A stretch of DNA of 64,000 nucleotides from Acidimicrobiia bacterium (GTDB lineage Bacteria; Actinomycetota; Acidimicrobiia; Spongiisociales; ZC4RG35), in assembly GCA_963665765.1 (NCBI GenBank), contig OY762464.1:2601958-2665957 (forward strand), in the 5' to 3' direction. Numbering within the stretch: the stretch's first letter is position 1; every line of letters begins with the position of its first letter. The position numbers and the translations under genes are program-made. The notes under the pieces are model-generated. The model was not told the origin of the DNA. It ran no database searches and saw only the letters and a list, made by a program, of their open reading frames with translations. This document shows positions 20,651-60,696 of the stretch, piece after piece.

Positions 20651-20875
20651 ATGCCGCTACCGCGACGGCCCGGGGATCTCAACCAGCGGGCCAAGATGAT
20701 CGTAGACCTGGCCACTGGGGAGACCACCCAGGAGGAGATCGACAAGCTACCTCCGATGGGTCGGGAGATTTCTGCGCAGGCTCGTAACGCTTCCCTTTCG
20801 CCGGAGCGGCGGCGGGAGATTTCTGCTTTGGCTCGTGCTGCTAAGGCCAAGAAACGGGCTAGTCTGGCAACATAA
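20651..20875 (+). CDS. Small hypothetical protein (74 aa, basic C-terminus)
   Basis: ORF with an upstream GGAAGGAG RBS. A palindrome TAACGttagtattaCCGTTA lies 30 bp upstream. Followed by a 10-bp-stem GC hairpin. No recognisable domain. Confidence 0.3.
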   Translation: MPLPRRPGDLNQRAKMIVDLATGETTQEEIDKLPPMGREISAQARNASLSPERRREISALARAAKAKKRASLAT

Positions 20876-20940
20876 AAGGATTCCTCGGGTAGCGGTCGAG
20901 GAGTAGGCCCCGTACGCTGTCGGGGTCCGATCACGAGAAA

Positions 20941-20980
20941 GGGGCCGACCGGCGGGCTGTTCGTTCGGTAGGTCGGCCCC
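20941..20980 (+). terminator. GC-rich hairpin (10-bp perfect stem GGGGCCGACC/GGTCGGCCCC, 20-nt loop) downstream of the small ORF; no U-tract
   Basis: Seen directly in the sequence; terminator function is inferred. Confidence 0.3.
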
Positions 20981-21336
20981 GGACTCAATCCTAGATGTGT
21001 AGTTCCAAGGGTTCAGTGGTCGTAGGCGATGAGGGAGCGGGCTGGTCCTGGTTGAGGGCTTTCTCGAAAGCTTGGCTGCGGTAGCCTTTGTCGGGATGAT
21101 GGTCTGTCCCTGTCGGGCCACTCGTGCGTGGTGGATCATTTCCAAAGCGGTGGTGCGTTCGTCTGTTTTGGCGCCTGCTACTGCCCAGGTGATGGGTAGA
21201 CCCGATGGGGTAGTGATGAGGTGGAGACGCAGTCCCCAAAAGTATCTGGAGTGGGAGGCGCTATACCCGCTTTTCGGCCCATCCTGCCAGTTCAGAGCGT
21301 TGTTGGATCGGTGACCGGACGCTGTGGACCGCCAAG

Positions 21337-21738
21337 GTGTTCATGGACGATCTGGCGTCGCGCCTTGCCCATCCCGTGCAGTTGACCACTGACGGACTCA
21401 AAGCCTACGTGGAGGCCGTGGACGAGGCGTTCGGCGACATGGTTGACCATCGCATCCTGCGCAAAATCTATGACGGAGGGGCCACGGCCCGCACTGGTTA
21501 CATCAAGCGCCAGAACCTAACTCTGCGGATGAGCAACCGCCGCTACGCCCGGTCCACCAACGCTTTCTCGAAGAAGCTGGAGAACCATGCCCATGCTGTG
21601 TCGTTGCACTTCATGGCGTACAATTTTGTGCGCACTCACCGTTCGCTGGGCAGGGGCGGTACTCCGGCGATGGCGGTGGGATTGGTGGACAGGCCGTGGA
21701 CGCACCAGGGCATCATCAACCTCGTGGACTCAAACTGA
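21337..21738 (+). pseudogene. IS1-family transposase C-terminal fragment (remnant)
   Basis: RQNLTLRMSNRRYARSTNAFSKKLENHAHAVSLHFMAYNFVRTH parallels the IS1 InsB C-terminus ([41 protein letters not shown]). The N-terminal DDE part is missing and upstream frames are broken. Confidence 0.5.
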
Positions 21739-22281
21739 CCCACTACCGGTTGCCTCATCAGCGCCCCGGCGGAGCTTGTCTAACGTGGAGTTGTACGGAG
21801 CGGTCTCGCGTTCAGCGAGAGCTAGCGCTCGGTCACTGTCGTTTTCGGCTTTGCGTTTCTCAATGTCAGCGATTTGCTTTTCGTCCGCTTTGGCTTGTTT
21901 CTCGCGTTCGGCTTGCTCTCGTGCCTCGGCATCGTTGTCCATACTTTTATCACTTTCGTGTAAGTGGAGACATCATGCTATCACTGCCGTCGTGCCCGCT
22001 GTGCCCACTCGATCAGATCATCACCCATGGAAGCATTTTACCCAAGGGGTATGACAATATCCCCGGTCGTCTACAGGCTTGGGTAATTAGGTATGTAATT
22101 CCCAAACCAAACGTCGGCGACCGTCCCGGACAAGATCTCATCGAGGCGGGCCGGAACAAAAGGAGCGATTTTCCAAGCCGCGCACCGGGGCGCGGGTTTT
22201 CGCGACCAACCCGGATTAGGTGCGGCGGGGGCGGGGAACCCTTTTAGGGGACCGTTGAGACTGCAAAAACTGCCACCTCGG

Positions 22282-23256: not shown

Positions 23257-23336
23257 AATCGGATAGATTACTGCGTCGGCGCCGGGTTCGCCCCGCTTGG
23301 AGACAATCCCGGTAACGCCACGCGGTCCCCGGCGTC

Positions 23337-24194
23337 TTGATGATAGAAGGCGGGTTTAGAAGGAATATGAGCATACCCCCGGATGCTTCCGGAGACATTC
23401 TCAGGGCAATAGCCAGATCTTACCGAGAGGAACTTGGCCCGGCGAGGGCCGAGCAGTTGGTGAACCGGGCGATGGCTCGGTCCAGTGCCCGCTTTTCCCG
23501 ATCCACCGCGATGAGGGTGTTGGCGCCCAGCCTTGCGCTGGCCGTCTCCCTGTTGGCGGTGGGGTGGTTCGCTCTAGTGGACGATGGCGGTCCCCCGGTT
23601 GCAGACTCCGATCCTCCGGCGCCGGTGGCCTCCTCTCCGCTTCCGAGCGACTCGACAGACGAACCAGTCTTCTCTCCGGTGGTCTCCATTCCCACCCACG
23701 AGCTGGAAGAGGCTTTGGACCTCATCGACCAGCAGAAAGAGTTGGAAGCCGCGGAAGTGGTGGTGCGAGCCCTTTCCACGTTTGTTACGCCGGTGAACGT
23801 TGAGAATCGGGACGAAGTCGCTTTGCCGCCCTCCACCGCCGACGTTGAAACCGAGCAGAGTTCGCCTCCGACTTATTCGGTCACGGGCGGGGTTCCGCCG
23901 GAGCAAGGTACCTTTCCGCCGGAGCAGGGCACCTTTCCGGAGGGTGACGCCGCTTCGGAGCCCGCCGAATCTGGGACAGAGACGACAACCGGGCAAACCG
24001 ATCCGCCACCGCCCGTCATCGAATCTCCGCCCACTATCACGGAACTCGGTCAGGCTCTGAAGGTGGAGGTGGAGGAACTGCTGTCCGCCGATCCCCAGGA
24101 CTTGGCGGAGGCAGCCGAAAAGGCGCGGAACGCGGCCACCCCGATTCTGGAGTACGGGAGTGAGCCGAGTATTCTTCTGCCGCCCGACCAATGA
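23337..24194 (+). CDS. Pro-rich single-pass membrane protein upstream of the ECF sigma (possible anti-sigma-like, hypothetical)
   Basis: ~60-aa cytoplasmic N-terminus, one TM helix (LAPSLALAVSLLAVGWFALV), Pro/Glu-rich extracytoplasmic tail with a PPEQGTF tandem repeat. Confidence 0.45.
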   Translation: MMIEGGFRRNMSIPPDASGDILRAIARSYREELGPARAEQLVNRAMARSSARFSRSTAMRVLAPSLALAVSLLAVGWFALVDDGGPPVADSDPPAPVASSPLPSDSTDEPVFSPVVSIPTHELEEALDLIDQQKELEAAEVVVRALSTFVTPVNVENRDEVALPPSTADVETEQSSPPTYSVTGGVPPEQGTFPPEQGTFPEGDAASEPAESGTETTTGQTDPPPPVIESPPTITELGQALKVEVEELLSADPQDLAEAAEKARNAATPILEYGSEPSILLPPDQ

Positions 24195-24326
24195 TCCAAG
24201 CGACCCTGCCGACTGCCGGTATCCAACCGATACCAGCCGCTATCTGAAACGTTCTCTTTCCAGATAGACTTCGGCATCGCGGCCCTTACCCAGACACCAG
24301 ACGCCCCGGCAATAACTTAAAGTTCA

Positions 24327-25313
24327 ATGCTGCCCACGGATTCCCCTGCATGGCCCCCTTCCCTTACTGAGGCCACCGCCGCGCGGGACGGGGACCAGGA
24401 TGCCCTAGCATCCATTCTCGTCCAGGGACTGCCTCGGCTGGTGGCGTTCTATCGCGGCCAGGGTTTGAACCTGTCCGATGCCGAGGACGTGGCGAGCGAT
24501 GCCTGCGAATCGATCATCCGTTCCATCGGACGTCTGAGGTCTCCACAGGCTTTTGAAGCATGGTTTTGGAGGGTGGCCCGTTCCAAATTCCATGACTACC
24601 TGCGCAGGCGCCACCGGCCGCTGCCCGCCCCCGAGATTGAGACGACCCATTCGCTCCCCGATGAACACACCTTGGACCAAGAGGACTTTCAAACGGTCCG
24701 CGCCGCCTACGGAAGACTTGGCGCACAAGACCGGGAGTTGCTCTGGTTGCGGGAAGTGGAAGGTCTGTCCTATGCGGCGATCGGAAGTCGCCTGTTCAAG
24801 CGGGAGGGTTCGGTGAGAGTGGCGATGCTGCGCGCTCGCCGTCGATTGGAGAAACTGATCGAGGAGGAGAGAGAAAAGCCCTATGCGGAGCCGCGCTACC
24901 GAACCCCTTCCGTTCTGTTCACCGAAGCCCAGGATGCCTGCTGTTCGCAGATGGCTGCCGCGTTGTTGCGAACCATGGCGACGGGATCGGTGAGGGTGTT
25001 CAATGGGGGGTTGGCTCCCGCCGCGGCGGTGGACCCCGGGACCGTGCAGGTACTGGCTGAACGGGGCATAGACATCGGTGGGGCGCGTCCGGTCCGGTTG
25101 AACAAAGGCATGGTGGAGGCAGCCGAGGTGGTGGTGTATTTCGGCGGGGAGCAATTGCCGATCACGGCCGATAAGCGTTACCTGAGGTGGCAGATCCCCT
25201 CGCCTGAGGGAGAGGGGCTGGAGGGAATGAGAAGAGCGTTTGATGAAATAGAACGGCGAGTTTGGGAATTAATGGTCCTTTTGGAGATAAAACCTCGCCG
25301 GATAAACCCTTGA
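24327..25313 (+). CDS. ECF (group 4) sigma factor fused to a C-terminal degenerate ArsC/LMW-PTP-like domain
   Basis: Sigma70 region 2 (LSDAEDVASDACESIIRSIGRL...FEAWFWRVARSKFHDY) and region 4 (LWLREVEGLSYAAIGSRLFKREGSVRVAMLRARRRL). The C-terminal ~130 aa align to Bacillus ArsC / LMW-PTP (FTEAQDACCSQMAAALL vs FLCTGNSCRSQMAEGW; ERGIDIGGARPVRL vs EVGIDISNQTSDII). The catalytic Cys and Arg are replaced. Confidence 0.75.
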   Translation: MLPTDSPAWPPSLTEATAARDGDQDALASILVQGLPRLVAFYRGQGLNLSDAEDVASDACESIIRSIGRLRSPQAFEAWFWRVARSKFHDYLRRRHRPLPAPEIETTHSLPDEHTLDQEDFQTVRAAYGRLGAQDRELLWLREVEGLSYAAIGSRLFKREGSVRVAMLRARRRLEKLIEEEREKPYAEPRYRTPSVLFTEAQDACCSQMAAALLRTMATGSVRVFNGGLAPAAAVDPGTVQVLAERGIDIGGARPVRLNKGMVEAAEVVVYFGGEQLPITADKRYLRWQIPSPEGEGLEGMRRAFDEIERRVWELMVLLEIKPRRINP

Positions 25314-25388
25314 ATTTGAAAAAAGGGGTTCCCCATTTAGGGTTTCTGTTGCATAATGAATGGCGGGTGCGTTTTATGAAGAATCACC

Positions 25389-26402
25389 TTGAGCGACCAC
25401 TCCGAGGCGGGGCTAAGGATGGTTGCAAGAAAACGCGCCGGAGCCAGAAAGGATCTAGGAGTGCGACTCACCAATGAAATAACGGATGAGCGGGGCCGAC
25501 TTACCTCCGATCTGGTAGCTCAGTACCTATCCGCCATCAGCCAGACCGATCTGCTCGATGCTCAGCAGGAGGTGGAGTTGGCACAGTTGATGGAGCGAGG
25601 TCGCCAGGCGAAGGGCATGTTGGAAGAAGGCGAGTTTGAGACCTTGGCGGACAAAAGGATTTTGGACAGGCGGAGGCGTCGGGGGGCGGACGCCAAGAAT
25701 CAGTTTGTCCAAGCCAATCTGCGCTTGGTGGTGCACAACGCTCGGCGCTATCAGGGAGTCCGGGGTATCGATTTTCTGGATCTGGTTCAGGAAGGAAACC
25801 TGGGTCTGATCCGGGCCGTGGAAAAATTCGACTGGCGCAAGGGTTTCAAGTTCTCCACCTACGCCACTTGGTGGATCAAACAGGCCATAACCCGCGCCAT
25901 TGCCGACAAGTCTCGCACCGTGCGTATCCCGGCTCATCTTCACGACACCTTGGCCAAGGTTCGATTGGCCCAAGGGATTCTCAAAGGAAAGCTGGGTCGC
26001 ATGCCCGAGCCCGACGAGATCTCGCAGGAGACGGGTATCCGCATCGATCATGTGGAACAGGCGCTGGTGCTGTCCGACACGGTCTCTTTGGAGGAGCCGG
26101 TGGGAGAGGACGGAGCGCAGCGGGGAGACTTCATTGAGGACGGCGACGCCGAGAATCCCGAAGCCATCGCCGAGGCGACCAGTGTGGCCATCGCCATGCG
26201 CAATTCCATCAGAAAACTACCGGATCGTGAGCGCAAGATCATGGAATTGCGGTATGGATTGGATGACGGGATTCCCAAGGGTCTGGATGAGATCGGCAGC
26301 CACTTCCAGTTGACCCGGGAAAGGATTCGCCAGTTGGAGAAACTAGCCTTGTGCAGGCTGAGACACCCCTCCTACGGGATCCGGCAACAGGACTTGATAT
26401 AG
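25389..26402 (+). CDS. RNA polymerase sigma-70 family factor (RpoD/group-2-like)
   Basis: Regions 1.2-4 present: DLVAQYLSAI, NLRLVVHNARRYQ, IDFLDLVQEGNLGLIRAVEKFD, STYATWWIKQAITRAIAD, LTRERIRQLEKLAL. No long region 1.1. Confidence 0.85.
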   Translation: MSDHSEAGLRMVARKRAGARKDLGVRLTNEITDERGRLTSDLVAQYLSAISQTDLLDAQQEVELAQLMERGRQAKGMLEEGEFETLADKRILDRRRRRGADAKNQFVQANLRLVVHNARRYQGVRGIDFLDLVQEGNLGLIRAVEKFDWRKGFKFSTYATWWIKQAITRAIADKSRTVRIPAHLHDTLAKVRLAQGILKGKLGRMPEPDEISQETGIRIDHVEQALVLSDTVSLEEPVGEDGAQRGDFIEDGDAENPEAIAEATSVAIAMRNSIRKLPDRERKIMELRYGLDDGIPKGLDEIGSHFQLTRERIRQLEKLALCRLRHPSYGIRQQDLI

Positions 26403-58734: not shown

Positions 58735-60150
58735 TCAGGCGGACATGGAACGCCGCAACTCCTTCATGAAGAACTTGCGGTACCCCGCAGGGGCACCGTC
58801 GATGTTCCCCAGACGGTCCACGCTGATGGAATGGACCTGTACGGCTTGTTCCTCTCGCTTGAAGTACAGAATCGACACGTCTCGTGGCCGCAGACCCACC
58901 GAATTGTCTCGGACAGCCATCCTTACTCGGTCGATGATAAAGTCGCTGTGAGTCTCCACCACAAGTTGCCGACTGGCATTCCGCCTACGCCTAGAACCTG
59001 CGATCTCGCTGAGAAGGCTTCCGAGAGCGGCCGACGCTTTCGGATGCAGATGGACCTCGGGTTGCTGCAGTAGCACCAGCCGCCGACCGTCATGGCGCAG
59101 GAGCTCGGTGATGAGCGGAAGCACCTGACTCACCCCGTAGCCCATATCGACCAGATTGCGCATAGGACCCTTACGCTGTTTACCGGATTTTCGTAGGCGA
59201 ATCTGGAACGGAGCACTCTCGACCTTGCCGAGCCGACGTATCTCAATCTCGGTGAAAAGGCCAGCCTGTCTACCGAACTCCTGAATCCGGGTCTTGAGCG
59301 AGTCCCACTCTTTTGGTTCCCGCAGGGCCAACTGGGCGAGGTACATCGGCACATAGTCGCCCTCGGGATCCGGGGTGGTCCGAGCCGGATCGTAAGTTCG
59401 CTTAGGCTGCGAACGTACCGGAGCACTGGCGAACACCCCTCCGACACCCATGCCACCCCCTACGACACGAGGCCTTGTGCGCGCATACTTGAGGTGTTTT
59501 TCGATCTCAGACAAATCTTCAAATGAGATGGGGGGTGAACCCTTGATCGGCTTGAACCATTCTTCTAATGCCAAGTTGGTCTGACGTTCGGTGTCGAGCG
59601 CCCGTCTGAGAACCCACATTGGGGAATCAACCATAGGCAATCTATTGCTGTCGCGTCCTGGGAGATGAGGGAGATAACCATCTCGGGCGTCCGCCCAAGC
59701 TCCACGGGGACCGCCGTAGATGATGTGGGGCCCATCATCTTCACTGAACCTTTGCTCAACCCAAAACTGACCTTGTGAAACCCGACGGCGTGTGGGAACC
59801 GGTGCCGACAGATAATCAGTGAAGTCAACGTGTGTCGCCATCGCAGAAGCCTTTGCGGCGCCTTTCCGGATAGCCAACTCCATGACCGCGCCGAACTGCT
59901 CGGGTGGCCCACCCCTCGCGCCACTGCGATGGATGATCTCACTAAAGCTGCCCAGATCATAGGGAGGCTCTTTGAAATCCGGTACACGATTGAGGTACGC
60001 AATATCGACCATGGCACGGAGCATTGCCAAAAGCGAGGTCTTGCCAGTGTTGTTATCTCCGACAAGTAAAGTCAATGGTGCCAAGCGGGCGGTCTGCGAA
60101 CCAGCAAAGCAACGGTAGTTGCGGACCGTAATGCTCTTGATTATCTCCAA
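58735..60150 (-). CDS. AAA_15/AAA_21 ABC-type ATPase (DUF3696-like C-terminus), paired with the PIN-like protein
   Basis: Walker A LLVGDNNTGKTSLL, Walker B LVLLQQPEVHLHPKA, H-loop LVVETHSDF, long insert between the A and B motifs. Confidence 0.75.
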   Translation of the reverse strand: MEIIKSITVRNYRCFAGSQTARLAPLTLLVGDNNTGKTSLLAMLRAMVDIAYLNRVPDFKEPPYDLGSFSEIIHRSGARGGPPEQFGAVMELAIRKGAAKASAMATHVDFTDYLSAPVPTRRRVSQGQFWVEQRFSEDDGPHIIYGGPRGAWADARDGYLPHLPGRDSNRLPMVDSPMWVLRRALDTERQTNLALEEWFKPIKGSPPISFEDLSEIEKHLKYARTRPRVVGGGMGVGGVFASAPVRSQPKRTYDPARTTPDPEGDYVPMYLAQLALREPKEWDSLKTRIQEFGRQAGLFTEIEIRRLGKVESAPFQIRLRKSGKQRKGPMRNLVDMGYGVSQVLPLITELLRHDGRRLVLLQQPEVHLHPKASAALGSLLSEIAGSRRRRNASRQLVVETHSDFIIDRVRMAVRDNSVGLRPRDVSILYFKREEQAVQVHSISVDRLGNIDGAPAGYRKFFMKELRRSMSA

Positions 60151-60696
60151 TATGCAGCCTTTCCCGTGCTGGCCCCTTGGAGAAAGAGGCTACTCGCCCA
60201 CCGTGCCGAAGCCAGTCGGAATTGGTTGCTATGCGCTATTTGTCCCCACGGAAGGCTGGCGGGGCATACGCCGCCTCGGTGGAGGGAAAGGCCACCGTCA
60301 ATACCCAGAAGTGCCCACGGCGACCGTCAGGGTCGTAACATCCCCTGGCATCTGATTTCCCAAGAATAGCCCTATCAGGGATCGGGCGGTCGGTCGCAAC
60401 GCCGATGGGGTGGGATGGTTACAAAGACGCCTTGACGGGCAAGGTTCACGCAGGGCCTTATAGGCTAGGAACTCAGTCGGTGTCACGGCTAAGACCCAGA
60501 CGTTGTTCTTCCACCGTGGTGTCGATTCCCCGGGCTCGCTTCCACGCCAGTCTCCGTTCGAGATTCCTGGTGGTGGGTAGTCCAGCTCTAATAAGCTGCT
60601 GTTTAGCTCGCCGCGCCCGCGTCACAGCCTCTTCCATTGTCAGGACTTCCTCCGGCGGGGGTAAGACTTCTGCAGACTCCATAGCCAACTCTCCCT

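Follow-up and report, generated by a model that had tools for sequence, protein, structure and literature searches.

A family of ECF sigma factors carrying a catalytically dead arsenate reductase-type domain in uncultured Acidimicrobiia

In a 64,000-nucleotide stretch of an Acidimicrobiia genome (assembly GCA_963665765.1, contig OY762464.1; hereafter the window, to which coordinates refer unless another locus is named), the gene at 24327–25313 on the + strand encodes a protein of 328 residues plus stop in which an extracytoplasmic function (ECF) sigma factor is joined to a pseudoenzyme domain of the LMWPc/ArsC fold, an assignment that rests on the open reading frame (ORF) together with profile and structure matches. 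A gene for a single-pass membrane protein, with an ECF-type promoter motif in front of it, lies upstream, and a second sigma factor gene lies downstream. Sigma region 2 of the fusion protein occupies residues 12–97 (24360–24617), where the Pfam model Sigma70_r2 matches residues 35–97 (E 5.9e-11) and the AlphaFold2 (AF2) helices have a predicted local distance difference test score (pLDDT) >90; sigma region 4 occupies residues 111–183 (24657–24875), with Sigma70_r4_2 matching residues 124–174 (E 1.6e-8). Both matches are above the gathering cutoff, these are the only sigma regions that Pfam finds, with no region 1.1 or 3, and the AF2 helices agree. The protein scores 74 bits against the general ECF model TIGR02937 (cutoff 42.9), its N-terminal half matches AlgU, SigE and other ECFs among solved structures, and it belongs to the ECF family. 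None of the named NCBIfam ECF subfamilies (ShbA, SigE-fam_strep, BldN and others) reaches its cutoff, the best being ShbA with 67 against 209 bits.

The sigma core is followed by a variable, disordered tether (residues 184–193; 24876–24905; pLDDT <50 at 186–191), by the LMWPc/ArsC-fold domain (residues 194–318; 24906–25280) and by a conserved C-terminal tail past the ArsC fold (LLEIEPRK/R...; 25281–25310), in which P323 and R324 are invariant. This C-terminal extension of ~140 residues is present in all members of the family. Pfam LMWPc matches residues 196–316 with 34.2 bits (E 3.6e-8; gathering score 23.2), and among PDB sequences the C-terminal half matches Cg_ArsC1' best (3t38, E 1.2e-17), with further matches to Cg_ArsC2 (3rh0, E 5e-13) and to the Synechocystis glutaredoxin-type ArsC. 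In the AF2 model (mean pLDDT 86) the domain superimposes on pI258 ArsC and Cg_ArsC2 with a root mean square deviation of 1.4–2.1 Å and a target-normalised TM-score of 0.87–0.90 (Foldseek, PDB). The first-pass annotation of this DNA, made from the letters alone, had read the gene as an ECF sigma factor of regions 2 and 4 with a dead domain of this fold appended; profile, sequence-to-structure and fold searches and 34 unique homologs agree with that reading, and Pfam, PDB and Foldseek all support the proposed fold. A relationship between sigma region 4 and Phosphatase-like_N (PF21234) was also considered, as phmmer and Foldseek alignments ran through both, but hhalign gave it a probability of 0.7%.

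The closest active relatives of the fused domain are actinobacterial ArsCs of 45–47% identity, which carry VLFVCVHNAGRSQ...TMGCGDACP...DWELxDP, and a comparison of 34 unique fused sequences with 126 active domains showed that the catalytic residues have been replaced throughout the family. Where active relatives read C-V-H-N-A-G-R-S, the window protein reads VLFT-E200-A-Q-D203-A-C205-C206-S207-Q, so that the CX5R(S) motif has become a degenerate P-loop (E200 to S207; 24924–24947). At the nucleophile position, 200, the fused family has A, E, Q or S and never the Cys of the active enzymes; position 203, Asn in active ArsCs, is Asp in 97%; position 205, Gly in active ArsCs, is D, H or C, with Asp in 74%; and position 206, Arg in active ArsCs, is Cys in 74% and Arg in 12%, the others having S, N or H. 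The resolving pair of cysteines is lost as well: the window protein has VYFG-GEQLP where active relatives read GCGDACP, the family as a whole has changed GCGDACP to G-(E/G)E..(L/P/S)P, the first Cys has no aligned counterpart and the second (position 277) is L, P, S or H. Finally, the Asp general acid at position 292 is Ser in 100% of the fused sequences, the D-P of active enzymes having become S-P in RWQIP-S292-P. The loss of the nucleophilic Cys, of the P-loop Arg and of the downstream Cys pair had been noticed on first inspection and proves to be family-wide, though Arg is kept in the 12% given above; the substitution then written as CTGN→TEAQ was off by one residue, the nucleophile position being E200 and the change CTGN→EAQD.

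Consistent with this, the domain scores 49.3 bits against the NCBIfam arsenate-reductase equivalog TIGR02689, below the cutoff of 157.6. Because the defining catalytic features were checked and are absent, the fused domain, judged from its sequence, is not an arsenate reductase or a phosphatase and cannot act as a canonical one. In public databases these proteins appear as 'sigma-70 family RNA polymerase sigma factor' or carry, in IMG, the name 'arsenate reductase', and the latter label is functionally wrong for them. The residues that are invariant in the fused family yet unlike those of active ArsCs are D203, R246, S292, W313, E314 and the tail ending P323-R324; of these, W313 and E314 sit on the last helix of the domain and are seen in the fused family only. 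We also considered whether the domain might have an acidic, 'DNA-mimic' surface and rejected the idea, its mean net charge being −2.8 compared with −5.9 for active ArsCs.

The fusion was found repeatedly, and in one lineage only. A word-indexed search of 5.8 billion proteins returned 23 clusters with the fusion at 69–100% identity, below which there were only ~190-residue ECFs from Acidimicrobiia at ≤56% identity. The survey of other genomes that the first-pass annotation called for recovered the same fusion in 16 further loci in GTDB (one genome per species), all of them in metagenome-assembled genomes (MAGs) of Acidimicrobiia, so that at least 17 Acidimicrobiia genomes carry it, the window's included. 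Isolate names, taken alone, suggest that several of these MAGs came from sponge or coral metagenomes. When 1.84 billion representatives clustered at 50% identity were searched exhaustively with phmmer, one cluster with the sigma–LMWPc architecture and two partial gene calls (P0121 and P0137) were returned, and among the best 150 hits there was no second family with the same domain order. The other long hits were tandem LMWPc proteins, or proteins in which an ArsR-type helix-turn-helix (HTH) and Phosphatase-like_N (PF21234) precede LMWPc, with CX5R intact; ArsCs of this subfamily have therefore been joined repeatedly to DNA-binding domains. These tandem or ArsR-HTH-fused active relatives are P0146, P0151, P0152, P0155, P0154, P0183, P0201, P0211 and P0236.

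Only one other protein among those 150 hits combines LMWPc with an ECF sigma factor. This protein, P0198 (JGI metagenome 3300032516; 1369–2364 of locus L033), known from one contig of 3.4 kb, has the reverse order, with an N-terminal ArsC domain that is apparently active, carrying CVHNAGRS(Q) and GCGESCP, and a sigma factor unrelated to the fused clade; it is an independent fusion event. The ORF that follows it (L033 2374–3000) has an HxxxCxxC motif by eye and no Pfam match.

A neighbour-joining analysis restricted to the sigma core recovers the fused proteins as a single clade in 50/50 bootstraps, with a maximum distance of 0.27 within the clade compared with 0.70 to the nearest unfused protein. 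Since they group together without the appended domain being considered, this indicates that the fusion arose once, and it is confined to one uncultured clade. No member of the clade lacks the domain. To estimate constraint, the ratio of nonsynonymous to synonymous divergence (dN/dS) was calculated by the Nei–Gojobori method from the window and 15 related genomes, in which dS is about 1 and near saturation. The values were 0.064 for sigma region 2, 0.15 for the linker between regions 2 and 4, 0.099 for region 4, 0.41 for the 10-residue tether and 0.21 for the LMWPc-like domain, which is thus kept under purifying selection.

Directly upstream of the fused sigma gene lies a gene for a single-pass membrane protein, a diverged protein of DUF5667 type and putative anti-sigma factor. 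Its longest ORF starts with TTG at 23337; from the ortholog alignment, the start is most likely the ATG at 23367, preceded by a ribosome-binding site AAGGA at 23360–23364, which gives a gene of 23367–24194 (+). The Pro-rich single-pass membrane protein first described at 23337–24194 is therefore retained with a revised start. The predicted protein is N-in, with a cytoplasmic N-terminal helix region (residues 15–50 of the long ORF), a transmembrane (TM) segment at ~61–81 (nt 23517–23579) and a Pro-rich extracytoplasmic part, and only about 45 of its residues are cytoplasmic. The gene is found at position −1 of the fused sigma factor in all 16 further fusion loci and is the fastest-evolving gene of the locus (36–58% identity to the window copy), yet a cytoplasmic N-terminal segment of ~35 residues is strongly conserved in the ortholog alignment, and dN/dS is 0.21 in the cytoplasmic part, compared with 0.41 (TM segment) and 0.34 (extracytoplasmic part) in the rest of the protein. 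In one locus (L014 5026–5870) the ortholog is split over two frames, as two tblastn pieces with a garbled C-terminus in the alignment, which is a frameshift or an assembly error.

Among the unfused relatives of the sigma factor, a single-pass Pfam DUF5667 protein lies directly upstream of the ECF gene in every locus examined. Locus L034 holds the closest unfused relative, P0025 (55% identity), and the DUF5667 protein encoded there aligns with the window membrane protein from the cytoplasmic helix through the TM segment to the first extracytoplasmic helices with an hhalign probability of 95.5% (E 1.6e-8); the match to a more distant DUF5667 set is weaker (48%). On this profile similarity the window protein is a diverged member of the DUF5667 family from which the Pfam-detectable signature has been lost. 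The literature searched makes no mention of DUF5667. We infer from its position, topology and conservation that the membrane protein is an anti-sigma factor.

An ECF-type promoter motif, GTAAC-N16-CGTC (23312–23336, +; −35 at 23312–23316 and −10 at 23333–23336), precedes the membrane-protein gene, ~30 nt upstream of its start codon. The motif has one exact match in the 64-kb window, where 0.26 would be expected by chance, and it occurs once per locus at the same position in 16/16 other fusion loci (17/17 with the window), the −35 and −10 elements being invariant and the spacers diverged. The same motif stands before the DUF5667 gene of the closest unfused relative, where the surrounding genes are different. 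With the more distant unfused relatives (L017–L028) only a TGTAAC −35-like element is shared, and because their −10 is not CGTC the conservation of this predicted promoter is firm only for the fused clade and L034. A promoter with a −35 of AAC and a −10 of CGT before a sigma factor's own module usually marks that ECF module as autoregulated, and the fused sigma factor would by this pattern be the one that recognises GTAAC-N16-CGTC. In L034, two more GTAAC-N16-CGT sites (489–512 and 568–591, +) lie upstream of a gene for an SLH-domain protein (665–2794), a hint that this ECF lineage may control cell-envelope proteins. A second GTAAC-N16-CGT match in the window (60399–60422, −) has CGTT and not CGTC, and as about two such hits are expected it is probably due to chance; it lies 250 nt upstream of an AAA_15/AAA_21/DUF3696 ATPase gene (58735–60150, −).

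Two further non-coding blocks are conserved at the fusion loci. The first, TTACCC-N~18–19-C(A/T)ATA (24286–24314, +; CAATA in the window), located by pattern match, is conserved across the window and the 16 other loci and ends about 10–12 nt short of the fused sigma gene's ATG, with no evident Shine–Dalgarno sequence. It may be a second promoter, of non-ECF type, giving a leaderless or near-leaderless mRNA; a scan with the sigma-70 consensus did not call it. The second block, between the fused sigma gene and the downstream sigma gene (25315–25358), is very strongly conserved in 17/17 loci, with the consensus GAAAWAGGGGGTTMCCGATTTAKGGTTTTKGTGGCATAGT, and ends in a −10-like CATAAT/CATAGT (25352–25357), often with an extended −10 TG; presumably the downstream sigma gene has its promoter or operator here. 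The block before the fused sigma gene is similar (TTnCCC ... C(A/T)ATA, with similar spacing), and because the two are alike one sigma factor may read both. No terminators were predicted on the + strand between the genes for the membrane protein, the fused sigma factor and the downstream sigma factor, and a scan of 23.0–26.6 kb for known RNA elements, sigma-70 consensus promoters and terminators found none on that strand.

Gene order is identical in all 16 further fusion loci: a quinone-oxidoreductase-like gene on the − strand, the Pro-rich single-pass membrane protein, the fused sigma factor, a group-2-type sigma factor of 337 residues (25389–26402 in the window; best NCBIfam model SigB) and genes for a LivHMGF-type ABC transporter. 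The fusion gene lies outside any ars operon. The unfused relatives occur in two other, unrelated neighbourhoods, one running from a nitroreductase to a SpoU methylase gene and the other with SLH and glycosyltransferase genes. Beyond the oxidoreductase gene, the region 20747–22250 contains short overlapping ORFs, for example 21337–21738 (+), one of which has a weak match, below cutoff, to an IS1 transposase (PF03400, E 5e-4); the region is probably a degraded insertion sequence.

The ECF core of the fusion protein is thus intact and constrained, and it keeps its ancestral membrane partner behind an ECF-type promoter. Based on these observations, we propose the following model, which as a whole we consider the best explanation and rather probable. 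The ancestral unit of this Acidimicrobiia-specific lineage would have consisted of the GTAAC-N16-CGTC promoter, followed by a single-pass DUF5667-type membrane protein and then the ECF sigma factor. In the ancestor of one clade, a thioredoxin-type arsenate reductase domain of actinobacterial origin, with the LMWPc fold, would have been joined to the C-terminus of the sigma factor through a flexible linker of ~10 residues. The domain would subsequently have lost its nucleophilic Cys, the resolving Cys pair, the catalytic Asp and, in most members, the P-loop Arg, while being retained by purifying selection. The membrane protein would act as the anti-sigma factor and hold the sigma factor by means of its conserved cytoplasmic N-terminal helices, and the sigma factor would use GTAAC-N16-CGTC to drive its own module. 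To this, the dead ArsC domain would add an extra cytoplasmic regulatory layer, inhibitory or activating, by binding the sigma core or another partner in the manner of the C-terminal domains of ECF41 and ECF42. Since the partner and the promoter are shared with the unfused lineage, we believe the dead domain to be an add-on to a conventional membrane-protein/ECF module, and the conservation of the DUF5667-type partner with an ECF-type promoter in front makes it unlikely that the fused domain is the sole regulator.

Several observations weigh against this model. Two AF2 runs, one with a mixed alignment of 79 sequences and one with a fused-only alignment of 20, gave predicted TM-scores (pTM) of 0.46 and 0.45, with confident domains, disordered linkers and no confident contact between the ArsC-like domain and sigma region 2 or 4; the fused-only alignment brought no gain in inter-domain confidence. 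The P-loop is variable across the family except for D203, S207 and Q208, and no ligand site is evident. No anti-sigma model (zf-HC2, RskA, class I/II anti-sigma domains) in Pfam or NCBIfam matches the membrane protein at E ≤1, the only hit being a spurious one to DUF4122, and the carriers of the fusion are all uncultured MAGs. Moreover, C-terminal extensions in published ECF groups usually go with the absence of an anti-sigma factor (PMC7826278), so that an extension together with a candidate anti-sigma factor would be unusual.

The last of these points also speaks for the alternative that the dead ArsC domain is the only regulator, serving, as in ECF41, for compaction or, as the first-pass annotation had suggested, as an intramolecular anti-sigma, with the membrane protein a co-transcribed envelope protein. 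If extensions usually replace anti-sigma factors, a membrane protein that matches no anti-sigma model, whose extracytoplasmic part evolves fast and whose DUF5667 signature is no longer detectable by Pfam, might have no part in the control of this sigma factor; the linker between sigma regions 2 and 4, which ECF41 extensions touch (PMC8999054), is in addition strongly conserved here. However, the membrane protein stands at −1 of the ECF gene in every fused and unfused locus examined, across different neighbourhoods, its conservation is highest in the short cytoplasmic N-terminus, the unfused relatives need some other regulator because they lack a C-terminal domain, and AF2 does not confidently dock the ArsC-like domain on the core. 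We therefore regard the domain as an unlikely sole regulator.

That same lack of a confidently predicted contact, together with a flexible and variable tether and variable P-loop residues, could instead mean that the domain has no regulatory role on the sigma factor and is a passenger for stability or solubility, or moonlights outside transcription. We think this quite unlikely given a dN/dS of 0.21 over ~125 codons at near-saturated dS in 16 genomes, the several invariant residues that are specific to the fused family and lie outside the former active site (R246, W313 and E314, with P323-R324 in the tail), and the fact that no clade member has dropped the domain. Nor do we believe that the domain is still an enzyme, or a thiol redox switch, by way of non-canonical residues. 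The window protein does have two neighbouring cysteines, C205 and C206, inside the former P-loop, and position 206 is Cys in 74% of the family, but a switch built on this pair is unlikely because neither residue is conserved: 74% of members have Asp at position 205, those without Cys at position 206 have R, S, N or H there, and no Cys of the domain is invariant across the family. With a nucleophile position that is never Cys, the resolving Cys pair and the Asp general acid absent in all members and TIGR02689 at 49 of 157.6 bits, retained chemistry of either kind is highly improbable, and the fused redox sensor suggested by the first-pass annotation is disfavoured in its Cys-based form. For the possibility that assembly or gene calling produced a false fusion, or that the gene is the remnant of a decaying pseudogene, we found no support beyond a few database entries (P0121 and P0137) that are partial calls of the same gene. 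It is refuted by purifying selection and by a reading frame that is intact, at 326–328 residues, in the window as well as in 16 independent MAGs, several of which carry it on megabase contigs or chromosomes.

Returning to the model of a membrane-protein/ECF module with a dead ArsC domain as a second layer, a bolder version can be put forward only tentatively, and on balance we doubt it. These proteins might constitute a new ECF group in which the pseudoenzyme is a cytoplasmic sensor or partner-binding module beside a membrane anti-sigma factor with a degenerating extracytoplasmic DUF5667 sensor part; the sigma factor would then have two inputs, with signal input shifting from outside to inside the cell, perhaps specifically in host-associated marine Acidimicrobiia.

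Among the routes of signal transduction in bacteria, ECF sigma factors are the third major one, and to our knowledge only a handful of extension types have been described for them (SnoaL, TPR, Cys-rich, DUF1835 and TM helices). If our interpretation is correct, a dead arsenate-reductase/LMW-phosphatase fold would be a further type, and a bacterial LMWPc pseudoenzyme would have been recruited into the control of transcription. As the ancestral membrane partner and the autoregulated promoter have been kept, with a motif common to the nearest unfused relatives, the two lineages would offer a natural 'before and after' comparison of the effect of a newly fused domain on an ECF switch.

Fused C-terminal regulatory domains occur in groups ECF41, 42, 56, 205, 294, 295, 238, 264, 287 and 288, for example SnoaL_2 in ECF41/SigJ, TPR in ECF42 and CorE-type Cys-rich tails in ECF238. 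The fused family resembles these extension-bearing ECFs in having a core of regions 2 and 4 followed, on a linker, by a folded C-terminal domain of >100 residues, and in that proteins sharing an extension fall into a single clade when only the core is compared (PMC7826278). It differs in that the appended fold is LMWPc/ArsC and a pseudoenzyme, in that AF2 predicts no confident contact with the core, and in that a candidate membrane anti-sigma factor is retained, where extension-bearing ECFs are typically without one. By frequency, C-terminal extensions rank second among the modes of ECF regulation (PMC7826278; PMC8999054), and the main texts of the papers on ECF reclassification (PMC7826278), evolution (PMC7671368) and non-canonical ECFs (PMC8999054) make no mention of a phosphatase or arsenate-reductase extension; an unnamed small ECF Hub group may have the same one.

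With the thioredoxin-coupled LMWPc ArsCs (S. aureus pI258, B. subtilis and C. glutamicum ArsC1') the fused domain shares its fold and the scaffold motifs VLF, SQMAAALL, ERGID, W288 and P293. Unlike them, it has its catalytic residues replaced, scores below the equivalog cutoff, is joined to a sigma factor and is found outside ars operons. Likewise, the module as a whole is similar to RpoE–RseA and SigW–RsiW in placing a sigma factor beside a single-pass N-in membrane protein and in its '−35 AAC / −10 CGTC' promoter with a spacer of 16 nt. In contrast to those systems, its membrane protein is encoded upstream (−1) and not downstream, has ~45 cytoplasmic residues, matches no anti-sigma model and is a relative of DUF5667 proteins.

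The re-use of enzyme folds in transcription control has other examples. Spx, a member of the ArsC/Spx family with a thioredoxin-like fold, binds the alpha-CTD of RNA polymerase and has a functional CXXC switch, and RssB binds sigma-S and has an inactive PP2C domain. The folds are unrelated (Spx belongs to another ArsC family and not to LMWPc), Spx and RssB are separate proteins, and the fused domain has no conserved Cys. The analogy is a functional one only: in each of these two a fold derived from a reductase or a phosphatase has been re-used as a regulator that binds RNA polymerase or a sigma factor.

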